Positions 4,382 to 53,380 of a stretch of 64,000 bases of DNA are shown here, piece after piece. Under the pieces are notes generated by a model that did not search any database, had not been told where the DNA came from, and worked only from the letters and a program-made list of their open reading frames with translations. A program made the translations under genes and the position numbers. The DNA is from Vicinamibacteria bacterium (lineage in GTDB: Bacteria > Acidobacteriota > Vicinamibacteria > Fen-336 > JAGNNV01), in contig JANMVV010000009.1 of assembly GCA_031392925.1 (NCBI GenBank), positions 7,979 through 71,978 of the forward strand. Direction: 5' to 3'. How positions within the stretch are numbered: the stretch's first letter is position 1; each line of letters opens with the position of its first letter.

Positions 4382-4756
4382 TCAGGGCTTGTTCGTGCCC
4401 GCCCGGCCGTACCGGTCCTCGAGACGCACCACGTCATCCAGCTCCGGCGTCGACACCTCGACGATGTCGACATCGGTCACACCCGTCATGCGATGGACGG
4501 TGTGCGGGGTGATGTGGAAGAGGTCACCCGGCTTCATCTCCGTCTGCTTGAGTTTCGTCGGATCGTCCTTCGGGCCGGTCTCGAAGAGAAGAGTGCCCGC
4601 CTGGACCAGGATGGTCTCGTCCTTCACGTTGTGATACTGAAGGGAGAGGCTCTCGCCCGCATTGATGTGGAGGAGCTTCCCCACGTAGCGGTCGGTGCGG
4701 GCCCACCAGATTTCATAGCCCCAGGGTTTGTCGATTCGCTTAGCGCTCTCGTTCAT
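4382..4756 (-). CDS. cupin domain protein (small mannose-6-phosphate isomerase-like cupin)
   Basis: Start trimmed to MNESAKRIDKPWGYEIWW. The GYE..W...G..LSLQ.H......V..G motif is typical of cupin_2. Lies 53 nt downstream of ptsI on the same strand. Confidence 0.6.
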   Translation of the reverse strand: MNESAKRIDKPWGYEIWWARTDRYVGKLLHINAGESLSLQYHNVKDETILVQAGTLLFETGPKDDPTKLKQTEMKPGDLFHITPHTVHRMTGVTDVDIVEVSTPELDDVVRLEDRYGRAGTNKP

Positions 4757-32638: not shown

Positions 32639-33352
32639 CTACGGGGCGGCCAGAACCTGGATGGTGATGTCGGCGATCGTGCCCGTGGAGGGTGCCAACA
32701 CCTCGACCTTGACGGTGATCGTGCCCGCCGTGGTCCGGGAGGTCTGGACTCGATTCACCGCATCGCCGTTGTTGTTGGTGGTCACATCCGTTCCGTCCAG
32801 CAGGCGATCGGTCGCGGGGTTGTTCGAAACCGAGAACCGGACAATGATTCCCGGGATCGGGTTTCCCTTGTCGTCGAGGACGGTGGCCCGGATCGACGCG
32901 ATGGACTTGCCCAGTCTCAGGTCGATGGTCGGGTCGATGGCCTGGGTTTTCACCTGGCTCACCCGGGGCGCCCCGATAACGATGTTCTCCGCTTTGACGT
33001 TGACGGGGCCGGACGCTGCGGTCACCACCGCGGTACCGGAACGCGCATCGGAGATGAGGTTCACCCGGGCCACCCCATCGTTGGTCTTCGCCTGCTCCTG
33101 GATCCTGCCAAGGGTCGTGAAGAACTGAATGACCGTCCCGTCCGGAACGGGTGTGCCCGCCTTCTCGGTGGCGAGCACCGAGACCACCGCGCTGGCGCCG
33201 TTGGCGGCGATGAACGAAGGGTTCACGAAGATCTGAAGGGTGGTGCCGTCAGGCGCGCTCAGGATGGCCTGGCCGCAGGACGCGAACGCCATTCCCGCAA
33301 TGATGAGCGCAACCAGGCCGCCCACCGTCCTTCTCCTGACCCGACGTGTCAT
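32639..33352 (-). CDS. lipoprotein with tandem bacterial Ig-like (Big/invasin-type) domains
   Basis: 237 aa. Lipobox FASC. Repeated motifs TAVVTAASGPVNVKAE and ATVLDDKGNPIPGIIVRFSVSN...TAGTITVKVEV are typical of Big_1-type Ig domains. Confidence 0.5.
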   Translation of the reverse strand: MTRRVRRRTVGGLVALIIAGMAFASCGQAILSAPDGTTLQIFVNPSFIAANGASAVVSVLATEKAGTPVPDGTVIQFFTTLGRIQEQAKTNDGVARVNLISDARSGTAVVTAASGPVNVKAENIVIGAPRVSQVKTQAIDPTIDLRLGKSIASIRATVLDDKGNPIPGIIVRFSVSNNPATDRLLDGTDVTTNNNGDAVNRVQTSRTTAGTITVKVEVLAPSTGTIADITIQVLAAP

Positions 33353-35757: not shown

Positions 35758-35769
35758 CTTTCCTCGGGT

Positions 35770-36309
35770 CTAGTTCGTCTTGAGGGGCAGACGGCGGGTC
35801 CTCCCGGACCCCATCTCTTCGATTTCCGCCGACTCGGCGCCGATGCGGATGACGCGAAACGCGTTGCCGAGCACCTGCCCCACCTGACCGACCAGGAGTA
35901 TCTCTCCATCTTTGACGAAGGAGGCGATCTTCCGGCCTGCCCCATTATCAACGATCCCGATGAGGCTGAGGTTGAGGGGGGGCCACGGAGTGGGAGTGGG
36001 CGGGGCCTCGGGGGTTGGAAACGGAGTGGGACCAGGCAGGGGGGGAAGCTTGATCACGGGCGTCGGCAGGGGATTCTGATCAGCGCGCGAGTCGCGACCG
36101 AACTTGAAGACGTCGCGAGAGGGAGGGGCAGCGAGAGGTTCGGGCCGGCCCAGCCGGTCGAGACCGATGGCCGGAACCTCCGAGCCCGCCTCCAGGCGAA
36201 GCGCCGCCTTCTCGGGCGTGTCACCCGATCTCCCAAAGGCGCTCCAACCCAGAGCCGCCGTGAGGACGAAAAGCAGCACGGCGAAAAGCTCCTTCCGCCC
36301 CATCACCAT
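35770..36309 (-). CDS. PilP/GspC-like secretin-interacting protein (TM anchor, Pro-rich linker, HR-like beta domain)
   Basis: 179 aa. N-terminal TM, PTPVIKLPPLPGPTPFPTPEAPPTPTPWPP linker, and C-terminal LIGIVDNGAGRKIASFVKDGEILLVGQVGQVLGNAFRVIRIG resembling PilP/GspC-HR domains. Confidence 0.45.
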   Translation of the reverse strand: MVMGRKELFAVLLFVLTAALGWSAFGRSGDTPEKAALRLEAGSEVPAIGLDRLGRPEPLAAPPSRDVFKFGRDSRADQNPLPTPVIKLPPLPGPTPFPTPEAPPTPTPWPPLNLSLIGIVDNGAGRKIASFVKDGEILLVGQVGQVLGNAFRVIRIGAESAEIEEMGSGRTRRLPLKTN

Positions 36310-36728
36310 TCGCTGTAGGGCACGCCATTCAAACCGACCTGGCCCGAAGCGCTTTTGACGTCGAAGACACCGGTCATGGCCTCGCCGCTGGTCGCAGCGG
36401 TCTCGGGCGGTATCTCAACCCAGGGCTCGGAGGAGATGGGGTCGGGCGGGATCTTCCGGAGGTACCCGTCGGTGACCAGGGCCTCCAGGGTTTCCGGGTA
36501 CTTCCCTTTGTCGGACTGGTACTGATCGATCAGATCGCGCAGGCGATAGAGGTTCTCGCGAAGCACGGCCTCGCGGGCGGAGAGCACGGAGTTGCGGTAG
36601 TTGGGCAGGGCGATCGATACCAGGATGCCCATGATCGTGATGACCACGATCAACTCCAGAAGGGTGAAGCCCTTCGATCGATCGTTTCTTCTTCGTGATG
36701 CGGGAGATGCGGAATTCAGTGCCACCAT
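36303..36728 (-). CDS. gspG: type II secretion major pseudopilin GspG
   Basis: Start trimmed to MVALNS...KGFTLLELIVVITIMGILVSIALPNY (canonical prepilin cleavage/methylation motif with Glu+5). YQSDKGKYPETLEALV...YLRKIPPDP is the GspG signature. Confidence 0.8.
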   Translation of the reverse strand: MVALNSASPASRRRNDRSKGFTLLELIVVITIMGILVSIALPNYRNSVLSAREAVLRENLYRLRDLIDQYQSDKGKYPETLEALVTDGYLRKIPPDPISSEPWVEIPPETAATSGEAMTGVFDVKSASGQVGLNGVPYSEW

Positions 36729-37207
36729 CACCAGTCCTTCAACTTTGTGCCGTCGAGCGCCCTTCCATCGGCCAGGGAGTAGACATCGTAAACGTTGTCG
36801 CCGCACCACGAGGAAGAATCGTGTTCGTCCTGATAGCAGTGCATCCCCCATTCGGCCTTTCCAGAAAAGGGATCCAGGGGAATCCGCCTGAGGAACTTCA
36901 GCTTGATTCCCGGACGCCCCACCTGATTGACACCTTGGACCATGGTCTCGAGCGATTCCGGGTAACCCTCGCTCCCCAGCTTCACATCGGTCCCCCCGAT
37001 CTGCCCCCGGTCGACGCCATCCTTGAACCGGTCGATGGCGGTCCGGATCTCGCGGAGCGAGCGCCGAAGTTCGATCTCCCTCTGCCGCTCACGCGTGACC
37101 CTTGAAAGGGGCAGGACCGCCGCGGCCAGAATGGCGATGATGGTCGCTACCGCGATCACCTCGAGGAAGGTGGTGCCGCGCTCACTGCGTCGCACGGGGG
37201 TCTCCAT
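36728..37207 (-). CDS. GspG-like pseudopilin, second paralog
   Basis: 159 aa. RGTTFLEVIAVATIIAILAAAVLP prepilin motif. GYPESLETMV...RRIPLDPF resembles the GspG core. Overlaps its neighbours by a few nt. Confidence 0.65.
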   Translation of the reverse strand: METPVRRSERGTTFLEVIAVATIIAILAAAVLPLSRVTRERQREIELRRSLREIRTAIDRFKDGVDRGQIGGTDVKLGSEGYPESLETMVQGVNQVGRPGIKLKFLRRIPLDPFSGKAEWGMHCYQDEHDSSSWCGDNVYDVYSLADGRALDGTKLKDW

Positions 37208-37745
37208 CCTTGAAGATGGCCGAGAGCTTCAGATTCATCCTCGCTCCATCCTCTTCCTGCACGAGGGCCATCTGATCGACCACGATGAAGCGCCTCGCGG
37301 ACTCGATGCGAGCCAGGAAACCGGTGAGATTCGCGTAGCTCCCCTCGAGCGGCAGCGTGACCTCGCAGCGGACGAGATCGGTGCCCCGGACCTTCGAGAT
37401 GGAATAGGCGCTCCTCTTGGGCTTGAGCCCCGCGTCGCGGGCGAGCCGTTCGATCTCCCGCTGGGCGCCGAAGAGGTCCTCGTTTCGATATTTGAGATGG
37501 TCGCGGCTCAGGCTCTCGATGTCCTGGCGGTTCTGGGCCAGAAGCGCTTTGCGCACCGCCACCTGCGACCACACGCTCTCGAGCCCGGCCCGGCGCGTCG
37601 ACACTGCCTTCGCGCGGTTCTCGGCCCGGCGAACGGAGGTGAGCCTCGGCCAGGTGAGGGCAGCGAAGAGTAGGGCATTGGCGATGAGCAGAAGCGCACC
37701 GATCCAGGCCAGGCGCAGCCTTGTCTTCGAAGAGCGCAGGCTCAT
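37182..37745 (-). CDS. PilO/GspM-like inner-membrane assembly protein
   Basis: Start trimmed to MSLRSSKTRLRLAWIGALLLIANALLFAALTW (187 aa): TM, coiled coil, then periplasmic domain. ATGA overlap with the upstream gene. Confidence 0.45.
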   Translation of the reverse strand: MSLRSSKTRLRLAWIGALLLIANALLFAALTWPRLTSVRRAENRAKAVSTRRAGLESVWSQVAVRKALLAQNRQDIESLSRDHLKYRNEDLFGAQREIERLARDAGLKPKRSAYSISKVRGTDLVRCEVTLPLEGSYANLTGFLARIESARRFIVVDQMALVQEEDGARMNLKLSAIFKDGDPRATQ

Positions 37746-38344
37746 CGCGTCTTCCTCGCGACGGGCGGGGAGGAGGGCGAAGGGAGGGGGCGGTTGTCGG
37801 GATCGAAGACCACCTCCATCACGAACTCCGTCCCCTCCTGGGTGTCCGACAGCGATTTGAGCGACGCGTTCGAAAACACGGGCGAGGCGTCGAGGGTTTC
37901 CGCGAGGGAGAAGGCCGCATCCTTGGTCCGGGCCACCCCCGACAGGTCGATCAGCATGCTGCGGGCGCCGCGGGGGGTGGTGGGCGAGATCCGGTCCAGC
38001 CGGACGTCGTCGGCAAGGGCCCCCTCCAGTTCGGCGAGGAGCCGACGCCACGGGAACACGCGTCGATCCACCAGCTCCTTGTATGCGAGAAGACGCACAA
38101 CCTCGGACGCTTCGATCTTGAGCGGAGGTTCCCTGGCAATGCCCTCTTCGAGCTCCGCGATCCTGGCCTCGTCCTGCCGGACCGCGCGCACGGTGTTGGC
38201 CTCCTCGCCCGAAACGAGCCGGCTCAAGAAGCGCCCGTGCAGGAAGGACGCCAGAAGGGCCCCGCCGAAGAGAAGTCCGGACAGGAGCCAGAGAAGCCTC
38301 TCGTTCCGGAAAGGCCGAAGGGCCAGATTCGTGGATGCCATCAT
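37742..38344 (-). CDS. PilN/GspL-periplasmic-like inner-membrane assembly protein
   Basis: Start trimmed to MMASTNLALRPFRNERLLWLLSGLLFGGALLASFL (200 aa): short cytoplasmic N-terminus, one TM, coiled coil and periplasmic domain. Confidence 0.45.
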   Translation of the reverse strand: MMASTNLALRPFRNERLLWLLSGLLFGGALLASFLHGRFLSRLVSGEEANTVRAVRQDEARIAELEEGIAREPPLKIEASEVVRLLAYKELVDRRVFPWRRLLAELEGALADDVRLDRISPTTPRGARSMLIDLSGVARTKDAAFSLAETLDASPVFSNASLKSLSDTQEGTEFVMEVVFDPDNRPLPSPSSPPVARKTR

Positions 38345-38349
38345 TGGGG

Positions 38350-39299
38350 TCAGTAGGCTCCAAGCAGGGCCAGCGCGGGCGAAGCCGAACGCTCCACCGC
38401 GGTGGGCATCCCCGCCACCACCAGATGCGCGGGGGGCTTTGCTCGTTGAGCCACGCACCCGAAAGCCGCACTGATGTCGTCGCTCAGTGCTTCGAACCAT
38501 CGATCCGAGGCGTGGACGACCGCGGAGGCGAGCCGGGTTCCCGCAAGGCGATCCCGCCAGAAGACCGCGGTGGAGGCAATCTCCCGCCGCACCTCTTCGA
38601 GACTTCGCGCCACCGTGGCGTCGAACGAACGGATGGACACCGGCCACCCCTGCCGCATGAGAGTCAGGGTCAGCCAGATGGGATCGTGGCGAACCAGGAG
38701 GGCGTCTCCTTCGACCTCCAGTCCCCGGAGGAGCGCCATCGACGAGGTTTCAACCGAACCGACATCGAGACCGAAGGCCTGGCCCACCTGTTCGTAGGCG
38801 CCGAGAACCGCGCTCGAAAAGCCGACGGCCAGGACCGGATCGGTTAAGGAGCGGGGCCAGGCCGCGACCACCCTGACCTCAGCGGGGGGAAACGGGAGGA
38901 GCTTCTGCATTCGGAAAGCGATCACCGCGTCCCGCCGCTCCGGCTCGGACCGGACCTCATCCTGCCCGAACAGACGGAAACGCGCCACCACGTCGGGCAC
39001 GACCAGCGCCGCGCGGACCGAGGGCGTAGCACCGATCTTCGACAGGACGCGCTTCGCGGCGTCGCGCATCTCCTCCTTGTTGACGAAGCCCGGATCATCG
39101 AGGGACGGGACGAAGGTTCCTTCGCTCAACGGCTCGCTGACCAGCGCGCGAAGCTCCACCTTCCCGCGCTTCGATTCCACCCGGGCGCCCACCAGGGCGA
39201 CGGAGGAGAATTCGAGCGCTATCTGAGCGCCCTCCGGGTCCAGGAAGAAGTGCCGGAGCCTTTCCACCACGGACCTCGGCCGCGCCGCGGGGCCTCTGA

Positions 39300-39303
<4 letters not shown>
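38350..39303 (-). CDS. PilM/GspL-cytoplasmic-like actin-fold assembly protein
   Basis: About 318 aa from the GTG that overlaps the gspE stop (GTGA). Begins ...VVERLRHFFLDPEGAQIALEFSSVALVGARVE, like the PilM N-terminus. Start codon choice is uncertain. Confidence 0.5.
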
Positions 39304-40937
<1,634 letters not shown>

Positions 40938-40939
40938 GG

Positions 40940-42148
40940 CTAACCTCCTCCTCGCGACTGGAGGGCCGAGAAGGCCTCGAACATCGGCAGGTAGAGCGCC
41001 AGCACCATGGAACCGATGATCACGGCCATGAAGACGAGGAGAACGGGCTCGACCAGGGCCAGGATGGTCTGGACCTTCACCTCGAGATCCTCGTCATAGA
41101 AATCCGCGACCTGGTTCAGCATCTCGCCAAGGGCGCCCGTGTTCTCGCCCACCCGGATCATCTCCACGGTGAGCGGCTCGACCTGGCCGGTGGCATCGAG
41201 CGCCAGCGAGAGGCTCTTGCCTTCCTGAATCTGAGGCACGGCGGCCGCGGCCGCCGCCGAGATCGCTCGATTCCCCACCGACGCGGAAGCGACGCCGAGC
41301 GCCTGCACCAGGGGGAGGCCGCCGGAAAGAAGAGTGGAGAGGCTGCGCGCGAGCTGGCTGGTGGAGTAGGTGCGCATGAGCGCTCCGAAGAAGGGGATAT
41401 TGAGGATCCACCCATCGAACCGCTCCCGATTCGCGGAGGCCTGCAGCCAGGAGGCAAAGGCAAAACCAGACACCGCGAGGAGCGCCAGGAGAGGCAGGCT
41501 CCATTGCCGCGCCTGATCGGACAGGCCCATGAGGACGCGCGTGGGCAGGGGCAGTTGAGCGCCGAGGCTCCCATAGAACTCGGTGAACTGGGGAAGGACG
41601 CGGGTGAGCATCACGTACATGAGGCCGAACATGCCGGAGAAAAGCACCATCGGATAGACGGACGCCGCAATGACCTTCTTCTTGATCGCCTGGTTGAGCT
41701 TCACATACGAAACGAATCGCCGCAGCACCGCCTCGAGATTGCCGCTCCGCTCGCCCGCAACGAGGCTCGCTGAAAACATCTGCGGGTACAAGGCGCCCTC
41801 CTGCCGGAAGGATTCCGAGAGCGCGGCCCCGGATTTGATCCGATCCCGCACCGCGCCGAGCGATCGCTTGAACAAGGGATCTCTCTGGCGCTCGACCATG
41901 AGATCCATCGACTGCGCAAGGGGAAGGCCGGCCTTGAGAAGAGCGGCCAGTTCCTGGCCGAAGAGCTGCAGGTTTTCGGGCTTGACCCGCGGCGCGCCGA
42001 ACCGGAACCCCTGCGTCCTCTTTCGGTGAGAGAAAAGGAACAGGCCCTGACGCAGCACGTCGGCTCTTAAAGCCTCCTCATTCGGGGCATCGAAACTCCG
42101 TTCGACGATTTCCCCGGCGGGCGTGCCGACCTTGCAGATGTACTCCAT
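40940..42148 (-). CDS. gspF: type II secretion / type IV pilus platform protein (GspF/PilC family)
   Basis: 402 aa. Two GspF repeats, three TM segments, and a conserved N-terminal region MEYICKVGTPAGEIVERSFDAPNEEALRADVLRQGLFLF. Confidence 0.9.
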   Translation of the reverse strand: MEYICKVGTPAGEIVERSFDAPNEEALRADVLRQGLFLFSHRKRTQGFRFGAPRVKPENLQLFGQELAALLKAGLPLAQSMDLMVERQRDPLFKRSLGAVRDRIKSGAALSESFRQEGALYPQMFSASLVAGERSGNLEAVLRRFVSYVKLNQAIKKKVIAASVYPMVLFSGMFGLMYVMLTRVLPQFTEFYGSLGAQLPLPTRVLMGLSDQARQWSLPLLALLAVSGFAFASWLQASANRERFDGWILNIPFFGALMRTYSTSQLARSLSTLLSGGLPLVQALGVASASVGNRAISAAAAAAVPQIQEGKSLSLALDATGQVEPLTVEMIRVGENTGALGEMLNQVADFYDEDLEVKVQTILALVEPVLLVFMAVIIGSMVLALYLPMFEAFSALQSRGGG

Positions 42149-42182
42149 AAGTTATTGGAGCAACTGAGTGTAGCAGCCGAGA

Positions 42183-44015
42183 CTAAACGCCGGACAGAGG
42201 AAGGAAGTCGAGAAGGACCCGGGCGCCGTGAACCACCGCGGCGAGGAGAAGAACGAGAGCCAGGGGCAATGAAACGGCCTCGGAGCCGAGCGTCTTAAGC
42301 CACCGCAGGTCGAACACCGCGCTCAGGTTCTGACCCGGAAAGGAGCCGTTGTCGCCTTCATCGAGAACCGCGGCTCCGACAATGGCCAAAAGCGGCAACA
42401 AGGCGAGCAGGTACCGGACCTCGATCGGGGAAACGAGAGCGGCGATGGCGAGAAGAAGACCGGTGAGGGCAAGGCTCCGGGCCAGGGGCAGGATGGGACG
42501 GATGCTCCGCACGAGAATCGAAAGAGCGATGAGCGCAACCAGCGGCCAGCCCGCCCCGTCCACGATCTGATTGGGGAGACGCCACGGATCGAAGACGCCG
42601 GAGCTTCCGCCGCGCTCGCCCAGAAGGCGCGGGATCTGCGCGGCGATCATGGGCAGGAAGGTGGCGAAGTAAAAGCCCGAAAGAACCACGCCCAGAAGCA
42701 ACGGCCTGAAGGCCGGGTCATGCCGATCGCGAGCGATGACGAGGGTCACCAGAAGCAGGGTGGAGAGGACGATGAAGGAGGAGAGGTGGGCAGTGGCGGA
42801 GAGCGCGACCAGGAAGGCGAGGAGGAGCCCCCGGGCCTTTCCCTTTCGCGAGATTCCCGCGGTTACGAGGAATAGGACGAAGATGGCCTGGGCGAAGACG
42901 TTGGAGAGGTTCCCAAACGCCATGGTCCGGAGGTTCACGGGGGCAAAGGCCCACAGCATCAGCGCCGCCCCGGCGAGGCCGGCGGAGGCCGGGCCGAGAA
43001 TCAGGGCCAGACCCACGATCGAGAGAGCGGAAAAGAAGGCCGCGCCTTCGCGCACCACCCGGACGTTCGAGACCTCGGGCGAGACGAACGGCGTGAGCAC
43101 GCCGTAGAAACTGAAGCCATACGGGATCTCGAAGGGCGGCTTGTGGTCCGTCCGGCTGGTGGGGAATCGATTCCCTCGCGCGACCTCGCGGAGTTTGTTC
43201 CCGTGCAGTTGAACGTCGCCCTGGATCACCAGTGGCGACGGAGGCAGCACGGCGTGAACGGTGAGCGCCATCAGGACCGCGATCTGCAGGAGGCCGCGAG
43301 TGAGGGCGCTGCCTCGCGCGTACCTCGAGAGCATGGCGGCGATCGCGCTCGAAGCACTCAAGAGCACCGTGCATTCGACGAGCCACGAGGATCGCCACAG
43401 TCCGGCGGGCAGGACCATGGCCAGAAACAGGATGGGGGGAAGAAGCGCTACCGCCGCGCTCTGACCGAAAAGAACCTGGGTGGCTATCGAAATCAGGGTC
43501 ACCGCGCCCAGAGCCATCCACAAGCGGACGGGAACACCGGCCGGCCGGCCGGCCATCGACGGAACGGGCTCCACCTTGAGCGAAACGAACTGCGTGCCGA
43601 GGACGCGGTTGGTGGCGGCGAAGCCCTCCGTTCCGATTCCAAACATCAGCGACGAGCCGCCGAGACGCGTCTGCGCGGTGAAGCGCCGTTGCCCCGGCTG
43701 CAGGGTTCCGATCAAGGCGCCGTTCGCGGTGAGATTCATTTCGGTCCGGTGGTCGCGCACCTCGAGATCGATGTCGACGAGTCCCGGACCGACGCCTTCG
43801 AACGAAAACGCGGCCTTCGGACGGGTCCACCGGATGGCTCCACCGCCGATCTGGTTCTCCCGCGGCTCGAGGCCTTCGGTCACGAAGGCGTCGTCGGTGC
43901 CGTAGGCAAGACTCGCAAGCGAGGCCGGCCGGCGAGAGACGAGCGAGGGCACCGAGAGAATCGCCACGATTCCTGCGAGAATCAGGACGAACGCTGCGGA
44001 TCGAAGCGAGTTCAT
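42183..44015 (-). CDS. large polytopic membrane protein of unknown function (N-terminal periplasmic domain plus more than 10 TM helices)
   Basis: 610 aa. First TM at residues 8-24, an approximately 190-aa soluble region, then many hydrophobic helices. Ends 34 nt upstream of gspF on the same strand. No family recognised. Confidence 0.5.
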   Translation of the reverse strand: MNSLRSAAFVLILAGIVAILSVPSLVSRRPASLASLAYGTDDAFVTEGLEPRENQIGGGAIRWTRPKAAFSFEGVGPGLVDIDLEVRDHRTEMNLTANGALIGTLQPGQRRFTAQTRLGGSSLMFGIGTEGFAATNRVLGTQFVSLKVEPVPSMAGRPAGVPVRLWMALGAVTLISIATQVLFGQSAAVALLPPILFLAMVLPAGLWRSSWLVECTVLLSASSAIAAMLSRYARGSALTRGLLQIAVLMALTVHAVLPPSPLVIQGDVQLHGNKLREVARGNRFPTSRTDHKPPFEIPYGFSFYGVLTPFVSPEVSNVRVVREGAAFFSALSIVGLALILGPASAGLAGAALMLWAFAPVNLRTMAFGNLSNVFAQAIFVLFLVTAGISRKGKARGLLLAFLVALSATAHLSSFIVLSTLLLVTLVIARDRHDPAFRPLLLGVVLSGFYFATFLPMIAAQIPRLLGERGGSSGVFDPWRLPNQIVDGAGWPLVALIALSILVRSIRPILPLARSLALTGLLLAIAALVSPIEVRYLLALLPLLAIVGAAVLDEGDNGSFPGQNLSAVFDLRWLKTLGSEAVSLPLALVLLLAAVVHGARVLLDFLPLSGV

Positions 44016-46003: not shown

Positions 46004-46096
46004 GGTAGGGGTGGCGGGGGTTGCTTCGGGCCATAGCGAAACGGCGGGGGCCCTCGCAATGACTTTCCGGGGGCGCTGCGCGCGCCCTTGAAAGTC
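46004..46096. repeat. partial copy (single arm) of the 26.1 kb palindromic repeat, followed by a short hairpin
   Basis: GGTAGGGGTGGCGGGGGTTGCTTCG...CCTCGCAATGAC shares both terminal motifs with the arm at 26105-26167. It is followed by GACTTTCCGGGGGCGC...GCGCCCTTGAAAGTC, an imperfect inverted repeat. It lies between convergent genes. Confidence 0.5.
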
Positions 46097-46454
46097 AGGG
46101 AACGAAGGGCTCGGGCTCGGCCTTGCCTTTGTGGCAAATGGAGCAGGTGATCACCGCTTCCTTGGTGCGCGGACCGAAGTACTCGGCCTTCTTCGCCTTC
46201 ATGTCCTGAACCAGCTTGATCATCCGGCGGGCGTCGGCCTTGTGCGGACGCTCGTCCTTTTCGTACTGGTCGACCACGTGACAGAACGTGCACTTCACAC
46301 CGAGTTGTTCGGTGAAGCCGTCCATCGTCTTCTTCAACTCGTCCTTCGTGATGTCCTTGGGCAGAACCTGAAGGTTCTTGCCCTCGGCCGCGAAAGCGCT
46401 CGGGGCCAGAAAGCTCGTGGCCAGAAAAAGGGCAGGGATGTATTTGTTTCTCAT
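46095..46454 (-). CDS. dihaem c-type cytochrome, small, secreted
   Basis: Start trimmed to MRNKYIPALFLATSFLAPSAFA (signal). Two CxxCH motifs (CTFCH, CSICH). Confidence 0.7.
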   Translation of the reverse strand: MRNKYIPALFLATSFLAPSAFAAEGKNLQVLPKDITKDELKKTMDGFTEQLGVKCTFCHVVDQYEKDERPHKADARRMIKLVQDMKAKKAEYFGPRTKEAVITCSICHKGKAEPEPFVP

Positions 46455-46488
46455 TTGAATTTTCTTGGAAGGGTCCTGGGTGGAACGT

Positions 46489-47730
46489 TCAGCGGGTGGG
46501 GACGGGCGGCCGGGGCCGGAAGTTTGCCTCGATGTGGGTGGCGAGGGCAAGAACTTCCTCGGCAGACATGCGGCCTCCGAAGGCGGGCATGTCCGGCGCC
46601 TCGCCCTTGGTGATGACTTCGATCATGTCGTTCATGGTGCCCTCGTCCCAGAATGTCTCTCGAGTGAAGTTCTTGGGTTTGCCCTCGAGCTTGGCAATGT
46701 CGGGGCCGTCGCCCTTTCCCGACATGCCGTGGCAGGGGGCGCACTCAACCTTGTAGTCGCGCGCCGCCTTCACCACCAGGCCTTCTTCATACTGCGGCTT
46801 TCTCGGCAGGTCCCGGTCTTCATACAGGGCCAGGCCGCCGAGGCCGAACATAAATCCGAACACGGCGATGACGCCGGCGGCGCGGAGTTTCCTGGAGGTC
46901 CGGATCTCCGGTATCAGCATGAGGGTACCGACGCCGATCGCGGGAAGGAGGGCGCTCTCCACCCATTGGAAGCCGTGGACGTACTTGCCGAACTGGAAGA
47001 GCCACAGGAAGTACCACTCCGGCCGAGGCACGTACTCCGTGTCGGCCGCGGACGCCCTCGGCTCGAGCGGCGCCCTGAAGTTGGCGGCGATGACCCACAC
47101 CGCGATGGCGATGAGACCACAGACCGGAATCAGCCATGGCCCCGATGCCTTCGCGGCCCGATCAAGGCCGTCCTTGAAACCGAAGAGCACCAGGATCACG
47201 AGCACGAGCGGAAGAGCCGCCGCATGAAGCGCGTAGAAGCGCGGAAGGGTCGCGGCTCCGAAAGTCGGGCCGCCGCGAAGCATGTCGGCCTGCAGACCTC
47301 CGACCACCGGGACGGTCTCCACGATGCCGAGGCGAACCGAGGTGCCCCAATACGCCGGCTGGTCCATGGGAAGCACGTAGCCGGTGAAGCAGAAGCCGAT
47401 CATCAGAAGAAGGGCCACGACACTCCGCCGGAACTCCCACTTCCGCTCGCGATGGACCTCGGTGAGGACGCCGGTGATGACCATGAGGAAGGCGGCGACC
47501 ACGACACCCGACGACAGGTAATAGTGCATGGATCGGAGCAGGGCCCCGATCCCTCCCTGTTGCCGGATGTAGAGAACACTCGAGAAGGCCTCGGTCTGGG
47601 AAGGCACGTACGACATGGAGAGCCCGATGCCGCTCCCGATGAGGAGCCCCGCGAACACGAAGGCGCAAAGTGCTGCGGCGCCGTGCAGTCTCGACATCCA
47701 GTCGACGTCCCCCTTCGGCTCGTCCATCAC
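46489..47730 (-). CDS. cytochrome b of a bc-type complex, fused to a C-terminal monohaem cytochrome c domain
   Basis: 413 aa. Multiple TM helices. PEWYFLWLFQ is a cytochrome b/b6 signature. C-terminal CAPCHGMSGKGDGP is a haem c site. Confidence 0.85.
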   Translation of the reverse strand: MMDEPKGDVDWMSRLHGAAALCAFVFAGLLIGSGIGLSMSYVPSQTEAFSSVLYIRQQGGIGALLRSMHYYLSSGVVVAAFLMVITGVLTEVHRERKWEFRRSVVALLLMIGFCFTGYVLPMDQPAYWGTSVRLGIVETVPVVGGLQADMLRGGPTFGAATLPRFYALHAAALPLVLVILVLFGFKDGLDRAAKASGPWLIPVCGLIAIAVWVIAANFRAPLEPRASAADTEYVPRPEWYFLWLFQFGKYVHGFQWVESALLPAIGVGTLMLIPEIRTSRKLRAAGVIAVFGFMFGLGGLALYEDRDLPRKPQYEEGLVVKAARDYKVECAPCHGMSGKGDGPDIAKLEGKPKNFTRETFWDEGTMNDMIEVITKGEAPDMPAFGGRMSAEEVLALATHIEANFRPRPPVPTR

Positions 47731-48239
47731 GATGCCATGGGCTCGGAGCTTGGGAGTCCGGGCCTGAACTTGACGAATCTGAGTTTCAATCGCCCGAATT
47801 CGACTCTGGTCTCCAGCCTATCGAGGGCACGAGGCGCGGGGCCGCTCGTCGGCTTGCCTTCCTCATCGAAGTCGCTCTTGTGGCACGGACAGCCAAACCC
47901 GCTCGAGACGCGGTGGACCAGGCAACCCGTGTGCGTGCAGAGGGCGGAAACCGCCTCGATCGCCTCGCCCTGCCTCCGGAGATAGACGCTCTCATCGACC
48001 ACGGTCTTCTTCCACCGGTCCTCGATCTCCCGGCGGAAGCGACGGGCCTTCCAGGGTCCCTCGCCGATGTCAGCGGCCGGGCCGAGATCGATCCAGGCCA
48101 CGGAACCGCCGCCCGCGGCCGCACCCTTCGAGCGGGCGCCGAAGGCGAAGAACAGGCCGGCGGGAATGGCGGAGAGCCCAGCCACGGCGGCCGCGAGGGC
48201 CTGCCACGACTTGAGAAGAGTGCGCCGGTCGATCAGCAT
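47727..48239 (-). CDS. Rieske [2Fe-2S] protein of bc-type complex, Tat-exported
   Basis: Start trimmed to MLIDRRTLLKS (twin-Arg motif). CTHTGC and CPCHKS Rieske boxes. ATGA overlap with the cytochrome b gene. Confidence 0.85.
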   Translation of the reverse strand: MLIDRRTLLKSWQALAAAVAGLSAIPAGLFFAFGARSKGAAAGGGSVAWIDLGPAADIGEGPWKARRFRREIEDRWKKTVVDESVYLRRQGEAIEAVSALCTHTGCLVHRVSSGFGCPCHKSDFDEEGKPTSGPAPRALDRLETRVEFGRLKLRFVKFRPGLPSSEPMAS

Positions 48240-48351
48240 AAAGATCCGAGAATAGCTCCAAGGGAGACTCAAACGCGCAGCCGGAGGCGCGATCCGGGCA
48301 CAAAAAGGGGGCGGCAAGGAGCCGCCCCCGGCGCTCATCTGGAGGGCGGAA

Positions 48352-50403
48352 TCAGTGCTGACCGCCGCCCGCCGCGGTGGTGGCCGAACCCATGTACTTC
48401 ACGTTCTTGAAGTTCATCTCGATGTCCACCTTGGTGATGGTTCGGTCCATCTGTGGCATCTCACCCTTGACCGTACGGTGCACCGGCATCCACCACTTCC
48501 CGTTCTTCTGGAAGAGGTCGTCGTAGACCATGGTGCCGAGGGGGATCTTCTTGTCGCCCATCATCATGTAGAACTCGACCGGGTAGTAGTTCGCGATGTA
48601 GCGGCCGTCCTCGGTGCGGATGTTGCGCTCCTGGTTGATGAGGAACTCGATGGGTCCGCCGAGCTTCCGGGTCAGCTTCTTCACTTCCTTCTTCTTGGGA
48701 TCGATCAGATACCAGGAGCCCATCGCGGTGTCTCCTTCGATTCGCATCTCCACCATGCCGTCGGGACGCTTGTTGTTGACCATCTTGAACCCGGCCTTGC
48801 CCACTCCGTACTTGTCCTCGAAGTTCTCGTAGGCGCGGTGGGTGATGAACTGGGAGACATAGGCCTTGGCTTCGGAACGAAGCTGGCCGTCGCACTTCTC
48901 GCAATCGAAGTCGAGGACGAGGTTCTTGTCGATGGAAACCCTCGCCATCACCGCGGGCTTGCCCAGATTGATGATTTCGAGGTCGGCGGTGAGGCCGGGG
49001 AAACCGTTGTCCCAGATGTAGCGATTCAGGGACGCAGCCTTGAAGATGGCGCGCGCCTCGGGGTCGTCGGTCAGCTCGGCGGCCTTCGCGTTCACGCGGT
49101 TCGCCAGATGCGGCTCTACGTCCGCGACTTTCTGGATCAGGTCGCCCTGGAGTTTGGCCTTCTTGAGCCGGGATACCAGGGCGATGCCCCGCTTGCCCGT
49201 GAGGCGGTCGACATGGCTGTAGTCCATGCCCACGATGCCCACTCCCTTGGCGAAGTAGTAGGTCTGGGTCGAGAGCGATTTGGTGGTCTCCCACGAGAGC
49301 GTGGTCTTCAGGACTTCGAAGGTCCCCATGGGGGTCTCGAGCGTCTCCATGCCGTCGATCCTCGACGTCCACGTCTGCAGGCGCTTGGTCCGATCCGTGA
49401 CTCCCTCGGGCTGTTCGGACATCGGCTCGCTCCACCGGTAGTCCTTGCCGAAGACCTGATTGGCGCGAACGACGGACACCGCCGGCTGGTACGACAGGAT
49501 GGTTCCGCCCGGGCGATTCTCGAAACTCGAGTGCATCTGAATCCCGTTGTTCGGATCGTAGGTATAAAGCTGGTAGCTGCCCTTGTTGTCGATGAGCTTG
49601 TAGGCGGCGGTGCGGCCGGCGAAGTCGGTGCCCGCGAACGAACGGGTGCGGTCTTCGGTCCGCTTGGTGCCGTCCTGCATGTAATACGTCCATTCGTAGG
49701 TCCACTCGTCGGCCTGGAAGTACGGGAAGTACGCGCCGATGTCGGCGGTCATCGTCCCGCCGACCTGCCGGCCCGAGACTTTCGCGGAGATGAGCTCGCG
49801 ATCGAAGCGCAGGGTCTGGCCCGCCTTCGGCGAATAGATCATGAACTCCTTCTTGACCGGGCCGATGCCCTTGGCGAGCCAGGTGATGGAGGTGAAGGTC
49901 GAGCCGCCCGGGTTGATGTACTTGAAGGTCGCCTTGAGGCAGTCCTTGAATTCGCCCGCGGGGATCGAGATGGACTCGTAGCCGTCGAGGATCACTTCGC
50001 TGCCGCGCACCGAGCCGTCCGAGATCTTGTGGGCGTTCTGGTAAACCTTCCCGAACGCATTCCGCGCGTTGTAGAACTCAAAGGGCGGATCGTTGGTGAC
50101 GAGGCCCTTGTCCTCTTCCTCGCCGTAGTGGAGGTACTTGTCCGCCTCGATGCGGAAGAGATAGTACCAACCCTTCTGGTCGATGAGCTTCTTGGCCTTG
50201 GTGCCATCGGGCATGTCGACCTCACCCTTGATAGTGAAGGTCTTGGTGCTGTAGTTGACCTGCCCGTCGGGCTGGTAGTTGTGGAACTGATAGGTCCACG
50301 AGTCTCCTTCGCCGGTCGGGTAGTACTCCTGGAGGTTGATGCCCTGCGCGGAAGCCGAAGCCGCCGCACCGGCAAGGACGAGAGATAGCAGGGTGGAACG
50401 CAT
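48352..50403 (-). CDS. hypothetical secreted protein, Lys/Tyr/Trp/Asn-rich with internal duplication
   Basis: 683 aa. Signal peptide MRSTLLSLVLAGAAASASAQG. Residue diversity is clearly coding (unlike the antisense ORF). Repeated W-TY-x-Y-DG segments at the N-terminus and mid-protein. Local GC is visibly lower than its neighbours. Confidence 0.6.
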   Translation of the reverse strand: MRSTLLSLVLAGAAASASAQGINLQEYYPTGEGDSWTYQFHNYQPDGQVNYSTKTFTIKGEVDMPDGTKAKKLIDQKGWYYLFRIEADKYLHYGEEEDKGLVTNDPPFEFYNARNAFGKVYQNAHKISDGSVRGSEVILDGYESISIPAGEFKDCLKATFKYINPGGSTFTSITWLAKGIGPVKKEFMIYSPKAGQTLRFDRELISAKVSGRQVGGTMTADIGAYFPYFQADEWTYEWTYYMQDGTKRTEDRTRSFAGTDFAGRTAAYKLIDNKGSYQLYTYDPNNGIQMHSSFENRPGGTILSYQPAVSVVRANQVFGKDYRWSEPMSEQPEGVTDRTKRLQTWTSRIDGMETLETPMGTFEVLKTTLSWETTKSLSTQTYYFAKGVGIVGMDYSHVDRLTGKRGIALVSRLKKAKLQGDLIQKVADVEPHLANRVNAKAAELTDDPEARAIFKAASLNRYIWDNGFPGLTADLEIINLGKPAVMARVSIDKNLVLDFDCEKCDGQLRSEAKAYVSQFITHRAYENFEDKYGVGKAGFKMVNNKRPDGMVEMRIEGDTAMGSWYLIDPKKKEVKKLTRKLGGPIEFLINQERNIRTEDGRYIANYYPVEFYMMMGDKKIPLGTMVYDDLFQKNGKWWMPVHRTVKGEMPQMDRTITKVDIEMNFKNVKYMGSATTAAGGGQH

Positions 50404-50413
50404 GGATGTCTCC

Positions 50414-51028
50414 TTAGGAATTCTTCTTGGCGATCTCGAGAATCAGCAGGTACAGCTCCTCGGCCTGGGCCGGGGTGATCTTTCCGGCATGGCCGATCAT
50501 CTTGTCCTTGCCGTTGAGAATGATGTTCACGAGCTCGGCCTTCTGGGCGGACCGGGTGGCGAGCCACTGCCTGGTCGCCCAGGCGGGCACGCCCTGCAGG
50601 GGGTCGCCGTCGCCGAGCTTGCCATGGCACTTCGTGCACTCGGCCCGGTAGTAGGCGGCGACGCTCCAGGGAGCCGCCGGCTCGGCCGGACCCTTCGTTT
50701 CCGAAGGCGGCCCTGGGTTTGCAGGGGCCTGCGAACCTCCGTCCGCCGCGCTCGACGAAGCGGCGGCGGCGAAGAGATTCGGGTAATCCTTGATCAGGCC
50801 CTCGGTGAACTCGAGGCCCGCATGCTCATACTTCTCACCGAAGGCCGTGAGCTTCCCCGAACCGTTGGCGTTGGTATGGCACACCACGCACTTGTCGCGG
50901 TTCGCCGCAACCGCGCGCGGGTGCGCGTTGTACAGATCCATCAGGCGGGGCATCGACGAGACCGGAAGGGTCACGAGAAAGGTCAGGCTCAGGGCGCCCA
51001 GGGCGAGGCGGGTGGAGAGAGAACTCAA
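50414..51028 (-). CDS. dihaem c-type cytochrome, secreted
   Basis: 204 aa. Signal peptide. CVVCH and CTKCHG haem-binding motifs. Confidence 0.75.
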   Translation of the reverse strand: MSSLSTRLALGALSLTFLVTLPVSSMPRLMDLYNAHPRAVAANRDKCVVCHTNANGSGKLTAFGEKYEHAGLEFTEGLIKDYPNLFAAAASSSAADGGSQAPANPGPPSETKGPAEPAAPWSVAAYYRAECTKCHGKLGDGDPLQGVPAWATRQWLATRSAQKAELVNIILNGKDKMIGHAGKITPAQAEELYLLILEIAKKNS

Positions 51029-51471
51029 GGTCGGCCTCCGTTAGGGCGGGGGTTTCTGGGGTGTCGCAGCTCAATGTGCTGGAAGAGAGTTCGCTGCTGC
51101 TCTTCGGTCAGCAGGGGTCGCAGTTCGACGAGGTTCCGCGCCACTTCCTGATCGAGCTCGGATTCGAGGCGGGCCACTTCCTGGAGCGACCCTTTGACCG
51201 CGGCCTCATCGAGGACGCCCGGAGCAGCCAGAAGTGACGCGAGCTCCTGCCGCTTCGCGTCGACCGCGGCCTGGTGCGCGAGCAGGTTCGGATGATGCGC
51301 CATCGCGATCTGGTGGATTTTCTCTTTCTGCTCGGCGCTGAGATTGAGGACATCGAACGGGTCGTCCGACGTGGCCCGAACCGGGGCGCGCCAGGCATGA
51401 ACGCCGTAGGTGACGGCGAACGAGACGAGCCCGGCGAGCAGGACGGTGGCGAGTGTGGATCTGATTCGCAT
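51025..51471 (-). CDS. periplasmic CpxP/Spy/ZraP-family (LTXXQ motif) stress protein
   Basis: 148 aa. Signal peptide. LNLSAEQKEKI and LLTEEQQRTL fit the LTXXQ repeat pattern. 4-nt overlap with the cytochrome c gene. Confidence 0.55.
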   Translation of the reverse strand: MRIRSTLATVLLAGLVSFAVTYGVHAWRAPVRATSDDPFDVLNLSAEQKEKIHQIAMAHHPNLLAHQAAVDAKRQELASLLAAPGVLDEAAVKGSLQEVARLESELDQEVARNLVELRPLLTEEQQRTLFQHIELRHPRNPRPNGGRP

Positions 51472-51504: not shown

Positions 51505-51882
51505 TCAGGGCTGACCCGGAGGCGGAGCCACTTTCTCGTAGAAGGAAGAGAGGGTTTCGGAAGGCGCCGCGGAAAGGCGCAAGGGCGGCGGCTGGACCTG
51601 CCGAGCCTTCGGAGTCAGGAAAACGTTGGTGGCGACACTGGCCACGAGTGCCGCGGCCACGGACAACGAAGCGGCGAACGTGCGGGCCCGGGTCCTCGGC
51701 GACGAGGCGGCCTGCGCTCGGGACATGATGTCATCGGCAAGGCCGTAGCGGCCAAGGCGAAACTCGCACGAGGCGCACCCGGGGAGGTGGGCCACGACCC
51801 TCCGGTACTCATCAGGCGGAAGTTCCCCATCCCTGAAACGGGAAAGGGTTTCGCCATCGACCGGGCAGAGGGAGTCCATGCG
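51505..51882 (-). CDS. anti-sigma factor, zinc-finger (zf-HC2) type, single TM
   Basis: Start trimmed to MDSLCPVDGE. HLPGCASC is the zf-HC2 motif, followed by a TM helix. Immediately downstream of an ECF sigma gene. Confidence 0.55.
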   Translation of the reverse strand, partial: RMDSLCPVDGETLSRFRDGELPPDEYRRVVAHLPGCASCEFRLGRYGLADDIMSRAQAASSPRTRARTFAASLSVAAALVASVATNVFLTPKARQVQPPPLRLSAAPSETLSSFYEKVAPPPGQP

Positions 51883-51917
51883 TTCTTTGGGAGAAACACC
51901 GCCCGCGGGGAAATATT

Positions 51918-52481
51918 TCAGTCCCGAAGAAATCGGGCCAAAGTTTCGCGGCCACGGAAGATCGCGTTCGCGACGTCGGATTCCGTGCAATCGAGCGTTT
52001 TCGCTATTTCCCGGTACGACCGACCCTCAGCCGCCTTCAGCCACAACGCCCTCCTCTGCCGCTCCGGCAGGTTCGCGAGAGCTCGGCGCACTTCCTTGAG
52101 TTCGAGCGCCTTTTCCGGCGTCGCCTGCGAGGGGCGGTCGTTCGCGGCCTCGAGAGCCACCTCAGGTCGACGCTGCCGTGCGCGGATCACGTTGAGGGAC
52201 AGCCGTCGCGCGATGGTGTAGAGCCAGGAGACGAACTGGCCGCGGCCCTCATAGGCGCGGGCGTGGTCGACCAGTCGAACGAACGTCTCCTGGGCAATAT
52301 CCTCGGCGTGGCCCGAGTCGCGGGTCAGGCGCGCGCTCATGCGCACCAGGCGGTCGCGGTGGCGAGCGATCAGCGACTCGAGGGCCGATTCTGATCCGCT
52401 CGCGACCTGGGCCATGAGCTCATCGTCGACGAGGCGATCCGCGATCATTGGACCGGCGGCGGGAACCAGGGCAGCACTCAT
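51918..52481 (-). CDS. ECF-type RNA polymerase sigma-70 factor
   Basis: Region 2 (DIAQETFVRL, YTIARR) and region 4 (LPERQRRALWLKAAEGRSYREIAKTL) motifs. Start is uncertain (52481 or 52448). Confidence 0.8.
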   Translation of the reverse strand: MSAALVPAAGPMIADRLVDDELMAQVASGSESALESLIARHRDRLVRMSARLTRDSGHAEDIAQETFVRLVDHARAYEGRGQFVSWLYTIARRLSLNVIRARQRRPEVALEAANDRPSQATPEKALELKEVRRALANLPERQRRALWLKAAEGRSYREIAKTLDCTESDVANAIFRGRETLARFLRD

Positions 52482-52504
52482 GGGAACAGGGTTATCCGGA
52501 CTGT

Positions 52505-53380
52505 CTACTCCTGCTCGCCTTGAAGAGTCAAGCAATCAGGGCGGGGCTCGGATCTCGCCTTCAGCCAGTCGGCGATCAGGACTCCCACCTCGTCGCCTTC
52601 GAAGTCGATGGGCAGGGCGTGAAACGCGCCCTTCATCTCGACGAACGTCTTGTCCTTCGAGGCAAAGCGGGGAAATGCGTCTCTCGTGCCCTGGATGGGG
52701 ACGACCCGATCCGCGGTTCCGTGAAGGACCAGAAGCGGCGTCTTCATGTGATCGGCGCGGGCATGGACACGCTCGATCGCCTCGATGGCCGCGACCGAAA
52801 GCGCGGGGGTGGTCCGGGGGCGCCAGAGAGGGTCGTCCCGGTAGGCTCGACAAACCGCCGGGTCGCGCACCAGCGCGCCGTCATCGATGCCGGGATCGAC
52901 GCTCATGGTCGGACAGAAGCGGGCCAGGAGGGGAAGGATGAGGCGAAGCAGGGGCGCCGTCCCGGAGATGTCCAGGGCCGGCGCCATGGCGACACAGGCC
53001 TGAACGCTCTCGGGCGCTTCAAGGGCGAAGTCGAGAGCCTGAAGGCCGCCGAACGAGAGGCCGATGAGCGAGGGGAGACGCCCGCACTGATCCTCGACGA
53101 GGTCCACGAACCGGGTGAGATCTTCGCGAAGCTCATCCCATGAAGCCGCGTAATTCGCGGGGCCGGCCGAGCGGCCTGAACCACGGCGGTCGAAGGCGAA
53201 GACCTCGAACTCCTGCTCGGCCAGAAACGAACCAAGCCGCAGATAGGGCATCGATCTCGAATGATCCCCGAGGCCGTGAATCAGAACCACCGGCCCCCGG
53301 CCGTTTCCTGGAACGTGAATCCGGTACGTGGAAAGGCTCAGACCATCCCGGGTGATGAACGACCCAAAAACCGTTTCCAA
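52505..53380 (-). CDS. alpha/beta hydrolase (lysophospholipase/monoacylglycerol lipase-like)
   Basis: 291 aa. HGLGDHS near the N-terminus, nucleophile elbow GLSFGG and a C-terminal His in HGTADRVV. Confidence 0.8.
   Translation of the reverse strand: METVFGSFITRDGLSLSTYRIHVPGNGRGPVVLIHGLGDHSRSMPYLRLGSFLAEQEFEVFAFDRRGSGRSAGPANYAASWDELREDLTRFVDLVEDQCGRLPSLIGLSFGGLQALDFALEAPESVQACVAMAPALDISGTAPLLRLILPLLARFCPTMSVDPGIDDGALVRDPAVCRAYRDDPLWRPRTTPALSVAAIEAIERVHARADHMKTPLLVLHGTADRVVPIQGTRDAFPRFASKDKTFVEMKGAFHALPIDFEGDEVGVLIADWLKARSEPRPDCLTLQGEQE

Follow-up and report, generated by a model that had tools for sequence, protein, structure and literature searches.

The 64,000-nucleotide stretch of Vicinamibacteria bacterium DNA analysed here (assembly GCA_031392925.1, contig JANMVV010000009.1, positions 7,979 to 71,978; hereafter the window) encodes, at 48352-50403 on the minus strand, a 683-amino acid exported protein within a cluster of respiratory genes. 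The gene is real and of native origin, and its product is predicted to consist of three β-barrels from two Pfam families, DUF3108_like and DUF3386. No function is known so far for DUF3386 or for the DUF3108-like barrels, and the family of the three-barrel protein provides a coherent genomic context for them. Gene neighbourhoods lead us to propose, tentatively and as a possibility rather than a probability, that the protein is a periplasmic receptor or adaptor that presents TonB-imported haem or a metal chelate to a dihaem cytochrome c. In the literature that we found there is no description of the three-barrel architecture, of the obligate cytochrome partner or of a Rieske/cytochrome b operon that contains such a gene.

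The N-terminal Sec signal peptide (residues 1-20) reads MRSTLLSLVLAGAAASASA, with QG at the start of the mature protein, and contains no lipobox cysteine. Neither the sequence nor the predicted model shows a hydrophobic helix past the signal peptide or a lipid anchor, and the protein is probably soluble, periplasmic and abundant. The open reading frame (ORF) and the signal peptide thus bear out the preliminary description of this DNA, made from the sequence alone, which had called the product a 683-residue secreted protein. A plus-strand ORF of 677 amino acids (48355-50388) was rejected as the gene. Its translation is free of Lys and rich in Val, Leu, Gly, Arg and Asp, and it is therefore regarded as an antisense shadow, of the kind usual in GC-rich DNA.

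Two tandem DUF3108/YmcC-like barrels, D1 (residues ~22-216) and D2 (~217-424), are followed by a helical linker (~425-458) and by D3 (~446-670), a DUF3386 barrel with a LolA/LolB-like fold; residue numbers count from Met1, and positions in alignment A1 are one lower. The tandem domain duplication suggested earlier is confirmed by BLASTP, which aligns D1 with D2 (~22-215 with ~218-425) at 28% identity over 178 amino acids (E 1e-14), and by profile-profile comparison with hhalign using 42 homologues (probability 99.5%, E 1.9e-22, 189 columns). D3 was considered as a third copy of D1/D2 and rejected at the sequence level (hhalign probability ~1%). The preliminary description had recognized no family, but Pfam DUF3386 (PF11866) matches residues 446-669 with 92.9 bits (cut-off 25; E 2.6e-26), covering profile positions 2-209 of 211, and DUF3108_like (PF21347) matches two stretches with 43.5 bits (cut-off 27). 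No NCBIfam family matches the protein at E ≤ 0.01, and a search of PDB sequences with the family profile returned nothing at E ≤ 1.

A full-length AlphaFold2 model built from a 35-sequence alignment (mean confidence pLDDT 87.9, predicted template-modelling score pTM 0.78) and a model of the C-terminal 259 residues (pLDDT 90.1) show three β-rich domains, with the helical linker between D2 and D3. In the predicted structure the DUF3108/YmcC-like fold agrees with that of solved members, and D3 has the unclosed barrel-plus-helix fold of LolA and LolB. Other structural neighbours of the barrels include lipovitellin, LolA, the nitrobindin-like protein Rv2717c, the CpeS lyase, VioE and OlmO; they are either barrels that bind lipids, haem or bilins or enzymes that work without a cofactor. 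Three barrels of ligand-binding type, as modelled, would fit the "secreted binding protein" proposed earlier. A classical substrate-binding protein, a Venus flytrap of two α/β lobes and a hinge, was rejected, because the model consists essentially of all-β barrels and a helical linker. The solved DUF3108/YmcC-like lipoproteins (PDB 4fvs, 3fzx and 2in5) are single-domain structural genomics targets of no established function, whereas here the barrel is doubled in tandem, non-lipidated and fused to DUF3386. LolA and LolB share 7-8% identity with the protein, which has no LolCDE context and whose conserved residues are His, Arg and Tyr; we regard this as a likeness of fold and not as membership.

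Among 5.8 billion proteins searched, 42 relatives were identified, and nearly all of them are ~680 amino acids long and have the same two Pfam families. In a scan of one genome per species, full-length relatives came from Vicinamibacteria metagenome-assembled genomes (MAGs; 85-95% identity), a second Vicinamibacteria group (65%), a MAG labelled Polyangiaceae (59%), Marinimicrobia/Neomarinimicrobiota (54-56%) and other Acidobacteriota including Blastocatellia (36-39%). All full-architecture matches are from MAGs and none is from a cultured strain. A word-index homology search with D3 alone returned only six close fragments.

Two types of locus were distinguished by tblastn of six window proteins against the related loci and by gene clustering. 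In type B (54-95% identity), the loci with enough flank have the invariant order cytochrome c, three-barrel protein, Rieske protein, cytochrome b/c fusion and PufC-like cytochrome, in at least four lineages. A head of three genes, for an extracytoplasmic function (ECF) sigma factor, an anti-sigma factor and a Metal_resist protein, is found in the Vicinamibacteria-type loci and in locus L055 only. In nine Marinimicrobia-type loci, genes for a TonB-dependent transporter (TBDT) and for a 362-amino acid lipoprotein precede the five genes without gaps; the lipoprotein weakly matches HmuY and carries acidic residues after its FIPAC lipobox. Type A loci (36-39% identity; Acidobacteriota and others) contain no Rieske or cytochrome b gene within their flanks. 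Their order is TBDT, short paralogue, long form and, downstream, a homologous dihaem cytochrome c, often followed by a BNR β-propeller or class-V aminotransferase gene. The short paralogue (440-490 amino acids) has one DUF3108 barrel and DUF3386, and its gene overlaps that of the TBDT or lies 23-75 bp from it in L025, L054, L055 and L033; the two also occur together in L028, where a transposase is inserted. Protein P0041 has the lipobox LLACG. In L030 and L017, the long form likewise has a TBDT gene upstream of it. L055 mixes the two types, with TBDT, short paralogue, ECF sigma factor, anti-sigma factor, Metal_resist protein, a 172-amino acid ORF, long form, Rieske protein, cytochrome b/c and PufC-like cytochrome.

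The homologous dihaem cytochrome c adjoins the long form in every locus with enough flank, upstream in Rieske-linked and downstream in Rieske-less loci, and in both locus types it conserves two CxxCH motifs as well as MPxxMDxYNxHP at the mature N-terminus. The cytochrome c gene is present everywhere and the Rieske and TBDT genes are not, and therefore the invariant unit is the three-barrel family plus the dihaem cytochrome c. As judged from gene content, the Rieske/cytochrome b complex is a lineage-specific addition, and the TonB receptors are recurrent. A TBDT gene lies beside a member of the family in 17 of 33 related loci, nine of them in one clade; the other cluster, of eight, includes L009. 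Eight receptors, which represent nearly all of these loci, were compared with receptor models. The best scores came from the haem/haemoglobin and transferrin/lactoferrin models (E 1e-48 to 1e-59); against the SusC model, E is 1e-7 to 1e-9 for the Acidobacteria-type receptors and 8e-32 for the Marinimicrobia receptor.

Other genes recur beside these cassettes. β-Propeller genes (BNR or Tricorn_N/PD40) accompany the pair of long form and cytochrome in several unrelated lineages (L028 9334-10743, L029 3525-4844, L030 6322-7698, L032 4597-6150, L003 12390-13445 and L054 4404-5462), and a class-V aminotransferase gene (Aminotran_5, cysteine-desulfurase-like) accompanies it in two distant ones (L025 5691-7022; L003 5807-7129 and L016 3750-5087). 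A NarG-like molybdoenzyme cluster, encoding the Mo subunit, a NarJ-like chaperone and a Fer4_11 subunit, lies further upstream in Marinimicrobia loci. Between it and the cassette of TBDT, cytochrome, long form and Rieske genes there is a gene for a fusion of a major facilitator superfamily transporter and a cytochrome c (L001 1963-3912, L004 1945-3942). In L009, from a Vicinamibacteria MAG, the place of the Rieske gene after a 91%-identical homologue is taken by the N-terminal part of a CarboxypepD_reg-type TonB receptor (3693-4250); this could be real variation or a chimeric short contig.

The superfamily-conserved residues of D3, R461, W464, F468, G470, H522, R523, Y565 and R579, are all present, and each is 83-98% conserved among 121 DUF3386 domains (88-98% for the polar residues R461, H522, R523, Y565 and R579). 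The conserved pattern consists of an RYxWDxxFPG segment, an H-R pair that ends a long helix, and a Tyr and an Arg on strands. His522 and Met561 are invariant in the long forms, and His/Met haem ligation was rejected as a superfamily feature, as Met561 is conserved in the long forms only. The protein has three cysteines in all (C155, C501 and C504) and no CxxCH; C501 and C504 form a CxxC followed by Asp, not His, just before or at the N-terminus of the long D3 helix. C501/C504, H92, H291, H432 and H642 (window region ~48900-50130) are conserved in the Rieske-linked clade only and are absent from the clade without Rieske/cytochrome b. A c-type cytochrome was ruled out by the missing haem-attachment motif, and a canonical bc1 or b6f subunit by the absence of a membrane anchor and of a Pfam or NCBIfam match to any such subunit. 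Of the "unrecognised redox partner" suggested by the preliminary description, the partnership holds to the extent that the dihaem cytochrome c is a constant genomic neighbour; the protein itself contains neither CxxCH nor another recognizable cofactor motif.

The composition of the protein is unusual. Tyr makes up 5.7% of its residues against 2.0% in the other 52 genes of the window (2.8 times the window average, rank 1 of 53), and Lys (2.0-fold), Met (1.9-fold), Asn and Trp (each 1.7-fold) and Thr (1.3-fold) are enriched over the window average, and Ala, Leu, Arg and Pro are underrepresented; these counts over 53 genes agree with the richness in Lys, Tyr, Trp, Asn and Thr first noticed by eye. 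The lower GC content noticed at the same time is real though modest: 0.609, compared with 0.659 and 0.670 in the flanking genes and a window gene mean of 0.649 (z -1.8). At codon positions 1 and 2 the GC content is 0.470, the lowest of the 53 genes, whereas at the third position (GC3) it is 0.887, the second highest, and the synonymous codon choices have the best likelihood of all 53 genes under the usage of the rest of the window. The low GC content lies wholly in positions 1 and 2 and is therefore a consequence of protein composition. The codon usage suggests high expression.

These data bear on the proposed horizontal acquisition of the gene. A recently acquired foreign secreted binding protein, unrelated to its neighbours, would account for a GC content four points below the window mean and for the atypical amino acid composition, but such an origin is very improbable, given the native GC3, the most typical synonymous codons of the window, synteny kept over phylum-level distances and the absence of mobile-element genes at the borders of the region. 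The presence of homologues at the same position in related genomes had been named beforehand as an observation that could refute transfer, and homologues 54-95% identical do occupy the same cassette position in Vicinamibacteria, Marinimicrobia and other MAGs. Codon usage and synteny together thus refute horizontal acquisition.

The 112-nt spacer between the stop codon of the three-barrel gene and the probable Rieske start contains a GC-rich hairpin of nine G-C pairs followed by a T5 run (48302-48329, minus strand). A stable hairpin occupies the same spacer in every Rieske-linked locus examined (L001, L003-L008, L010, L011, L014, L016-L019, L021, L023, L024, L027 and L055), at -14 to -31 kcal/mol, most of them at -18 or stronger. 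These hairpins mostly precede a T-run and are kept from the GC-rich Vicinamibacteria to the AT-rich Marinimicrobia, with sequences that are unrelated between lineages. Because the position is conserved and the sequence is not, the element resembles an intra-operon terminator or attenuator. This suggests partial termination or transcript stabilization, and the cytochrome c and three-barrel protein would therefore be more abundant than the membrane complex. An excess of soluble binding proteins set by a hairpin is known in transport operons, and the hairpin, together with the best codon adaptation in the window, hints at a soluble binding protein made in excess over a membrane complex.

In a hidden Markov model search of 1.84 billion representative sequences, 1073 relatives were found at E ≤ 1e-3, and among the 150 matches listed, two 50%-identity clusters have the ~680-residue architecture. 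The DUF3386 family consists mostly of stand-alone proteins of 200-270 amino acids, some of which look cytoplasmic; D3 of the three-barrel protein keeps all of the superfamily-conserved residues. A crude sequence classification of ~123 representatives with a complete domain gave ~37 without an N-terminal extension, ~31 secreted stand-alone proteins, ~7 with DUF3108 barrels and 23 in which DUF4198 (E down to 5e-11) is N-terminal and the mature protein begins with His, in the motif A/HF[ILV]W, where the slash marks the start of the mature protein. Where about a fifth of the representatives thus carry DUF4198, the three-barrel protein has DUF3108-like barrels and no N-terminal His metal site. DUF4198 proteins are periplasmic Ni/Zn capture proteins with an N-terminal His ligand and TonB-receptor neighbours (PMC12537917, PMC12663993); like the three-barrel family, Neisseria gonorrhoeae Zcp and the Ideonella Ni-binding protein are periplasmic and TonB-receptor-associated.

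A second association is with PepSY_TM proteins. In P0151 (locus L136) DUF3386 is fused to a PepSY_TM domain (E 8e-61), and on a separate contig, L137, a stand-alone DUF3386 gene begins 20 bp after a PepSY_TM gene that is 67% identical. The PepSY_TM proteins FoxB, XusC and CrpH are membrane enzymes with haem b that reduce ferrisiderophores in the periplasm or support copper supply there, and their genes accompany those of TBDTs (bioRxiv 10.1101/2021.01.28.428567; bioRxiv 10.1101/2023.03.17.533168; PMC13038864; PMC12914433). By gene association, DUF3386 would thus appear to be connected with metal handling in the periplasm and with a reductase. In the literature searched, no paper names DUF3386 or PF11866, and DUF3108 is named in passing only. 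We take it that the Pfam description also places DUF3386 in cyanobacteria and plants.

Pseudopilin-like DUF1559/SBP_bac_10 genes are a recurrent neighbour elsewhere in the superfamily. They lie upstream in both contigs that link PepSY_TM with DUF3386 (L136, L137), precede PepSY_TM genes in L139 and L140 as well, and stand immediately upstream of DUF4198-DUF3386 fusions (L056-L135; for example, L058 3526-4419 and L070 4608-5573). In a metagenome scan with a narrowed alignment they were the commonest neighbour of these fusions, at 12 of 136 neighbouring genes by Pfam and ~15 of ~40 loci by clustering on metagenome contigs. The association probably comes from Planctomycetes- or Armatimonadota-type genomes, and no description of it was found in the literature.

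From the constant dihaem cytochrome c, the adjacency of TBDTs and their scores against haem- and metal-type receptor models, the links to DUF4198 and PepSY_TM, and the hairpin and codon usage, a role for the three-barrel protein in reductive uptake can be suggested. The cargo would be a redox-active compound imported through TonB, either haem or a ferric or other metal chelate. It would be held by the barrels, with the conserved His-Arg/Tyr/Arg cluster of D3 as the probable binding site and polar anchor, and would be presented to the dihaem cytochrome c, which would reduce it. In type B loci, the Rieske/cytochrome b-c complex would feed the dihaem cytochrome c with electrons from the quinol pool. 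What we infer from these associations is that a ligand is bound, what the cargo is, that the protein touches the cytochrome, and which way the electrons flow. The whole would be a quinol-driven counterpart of the systems in which a TBDT is combined with a PepSY_TM reductase, namely FoxA/FoxB of Pseudomonas and XusABC of Bacteroides, in which a TBDT, sometimes with a surface lipoprotein, works with a membrane electron-transfer protein that reduces the chelate in the periplasm. The locus resembles these systems through the DUF3386 genes that adjoin or are fused to PepSY_TM reductase genes, and differs from them in its presumed electron source, a Rieske/cytochrome b complex and c-type cytochromes in place of PepSY_TM. 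No DUF3386 or DUF3108 component has been described for FoxAB or XusABC. By analogy, the three-barrel protein would work most like their periplasmic side, with another electron source. Non-canonical Rieske/cytochrome b pairs placed in clusters for one periplasmic process, with c-type cytochromes as acceptors, are described for the nap cluster of Caldithrix abyssi and for clade II nos clusters (PMC5317091; PMC13122619). The nap and nos clusters encode a recognizable terminal reductase, whereas in the present cluster the three-barrel protein is the sole non-cytochrome periplasmic protein.

Several observations weigh against a cargo receptor. A complete Rieske/cytochrome b complex would be a heavy electron source for the reduction of a nutrient, and it could instead serve a respiratory enzyme such as that of the NarG-like cluster beside the Marinimicrobia cassette. 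Among the annotated genes of the window, for which coverage is incomplete, there is no TBDT, and no paralogue of the three-barrel gene was found in the window. All of the TBDT matches fall below the NCBIfam cut-offs for any specific receptor type, and the HmuY match of the lipoprotein is below the Pfam cut-off. The PepSY_TM fusion is a single sequence and the adjacent PepSY_TM and DUF3386 genes a single pair. The genes that flank DUF4198-DUF3386 fusions are DUF1559/SBP_bac_10 genes and not those of TBDTs or cytochromes; this branch therefore supports "uptake-related" only loosely. Since some extension-less members look cytoplasmic, DUF3386 is not restricted to uptake systems. A wider proposal would see in DUF3386 proteins the periplasmic cargo receptors that have so far been missing from reductive uptake of metal or haem, and in the Rieske/cytochrome b complex, usually an energy converter of respiration, a user of quinol for reducing the TonB-imported chelate via the dihaem cytochrome c. 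It is speculative, and we hold it with considerable doubt. Were it true, it would give DUF3386 its first function and wire outer-membrane import directly to the quinone pool. If the protein is a cargo receptor as suggested above, it would represent a new route to iron, haem or copper, paid for with respiratory-chain electrons, in soil and ocean bacteria that are abundant and for the most part uncultured (Vicinamibacteria, other Acidobacteriota and Marinimicrobia), and would add an accessory component to non-canonical Rieske/cytochrome b complexes. If the cargo receptor fails, the protein is still a conserved and probably abundant periplasmic component of an undescribed bc-type operon.

The chief rival to a cargo receptor is that the protein binds no cargo and is an accessory subunit, docking platform or assembly factor of the Rieske/cytochrome b6-c complex, which we consider rather unlikely though deserving serious attention. 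It would explain why the gene order never varies among the loci with 54-95% identity, which span at least four lineages. The many charged and His/Cys residues that are conserved only in the Rieske-linked clade (C501/C504, H92, H291, H432 and H642) also favour it, as such clade-limited conservation is expected of an interface. The long forms of 36-39% identity, however, occur with the cytochrome c and with no Rieske or cytochrome b gene in 6-8 kb of flank (L025, L028-L030, L032 and L054), and the 91%-identical homologue of L009 is followed by the start of a TBDT in place of the Rieske gene. The conserved terminator-like hairpin also parts the three-barrel gene from the Rieske gene, and a transmembrane helix or lipid anchor is missing. 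A redox role for the protein itself is unlikely. One or more barrels might bind a cofactor non-covalently, for example haem b through His522 and Tyr565 or Met561, which would make it a new β-barrel electron carrier between the cytochromes and some further acceptor. The protein is surrounded by redox genes only, His522 and Met561 are invariant in long forms, Tyr565 and three Arg are conserved and would fit haem ligands and propionates, and the barrel analogues include the nitrobindin-like Rv2717c and a bilin lyase; yet Met561 is not conserved over the DUF3386 superfamily, many DUF3386 proteins have no redox neighbours, CxxCH is missing, and no precedent was found in the PDB by sequence.

The respiratory neighbours could also be coincidental, and the protein might, in the manner of LolA, carry or chaperone lipids, lipoproteins or unfolded proteins of the envelope as part of an envelope-stress regulon of ECF-sigma/Spy type. 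We judge this distinctly unlikely, even though the fold of D3 is LolA/LolB-like, the barrels look like those of lipid-binding proteins, and a Spy/CpxP-like gene and genes for an ECF sigma factor and its anti-sigma factor lie upstream: the Spy-like and ECF genes are confined to Vicinamibacteria-type loci whereas the cytochrome c is found everywhere, there is no sequence match to LolA or LolB models, the conserved D3 residues are polar (His, Arg and Tyr) with no greasy cavity signature, and the fusions of the superfamily are to DUF4198 and PepSY_TM. An enzyme reading is improbable. In it, a cofactor-independent periplasmic enzyme would oxidize or otherwise convert an imported substrate and pass electrons to the dihaem cytochrome c, with the Rieske/cytochrome b complex being reversible, as proposed for the uphill branch of iron oxidizers. 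The barrel class does include VioE, the OlmO spirocyclase and kievitone hydratase, and we take the gene order to be like that of petI of Acidithiobacillus ferrooxidans, which presumably runs dihaem cytochrome c4, a protein of unknown role, Rieske protein, cytochrome b and cytochrome c1. An oxidoreductase that lacks a redox cofactor is nevertheless unlikely, and neither domain family has a known catalytic motif.

The minus-strand cluster around the three-barrel gene is tightly packed. It is headed by an ECF-type sigma-70 factor (51919-52481, with a probable start at 52481; mechanical ORF 51918-52535), followed by an anti-sigma factor that has a zf-HC2 motif and a single transmembrane helix (51505-51879, likely start 51879; mechanical ORF 51505-51990) and a Spy/CpxP/ZraP-like periplasmic protein that matches Pfam Metal_resist (51025-51471). 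The exported dihaem cytochrome c (50414-51028) has CVVCH at residue 47 and CTKCH at residue 131, and an Ala/Ser/Pro-rich linker joins its two haem domains. Downstream of the three-barrel gene, the Rieske [2Fe-2S] protein (47727-48239) probably starts at the ATG at 48239 with MLIDRRTLLK, a motif of twin-arginine translocation type; the mechanical ORF runs to 48338, across the hairpin, and homologues are 157-176 amino acids long. It is followed by a fusion of cytochrome b6-like, subunit IV-like and monohaem cytochrome c segments (46489-47730), with a PEWY motif and a C-terminal CAPCH, and by a small dihaem, non-photosynthetic PufC-like cytochrome (46095-46454; NF033196, 89.6 bits against a cut-off of 70) with a probable ATG start at 46454 (mechanical ORF 46095-46550). 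All of these genes are on the minus strand, and convergent genes for a DUF2203 protein and a DeoC aldolase lie beyond the end of the PufC-like gene. The neighbours named in the preliminary description, a bc-type complex (Rieske protein, cytochrome b-c fusion and dihaem cytochrome c) and another dihaem cytochrome c, were identified correctly; the former lies downstream and the latter upstream.

No Fur-box-like site was found in the window and no sigma-70-like promoter between 45.6 and 52.9 kb; the operon contains no PepSY_TM membrane protein, and there are no Lol genes among the annotated neighbours in the operon region (~38-59 kb). Elsewhere in the window, two large proteins have no Pfam match, one of 616 amino acids at 2623-4473 and one of 610 amino acids at 42183-44015. 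The latter is encoded in a type IV pilus/type II secretion cluster (33349-44015) that includes genes for a secretin, a PilN-like protein, a T2SSE ATPase and a T2SSF protein.

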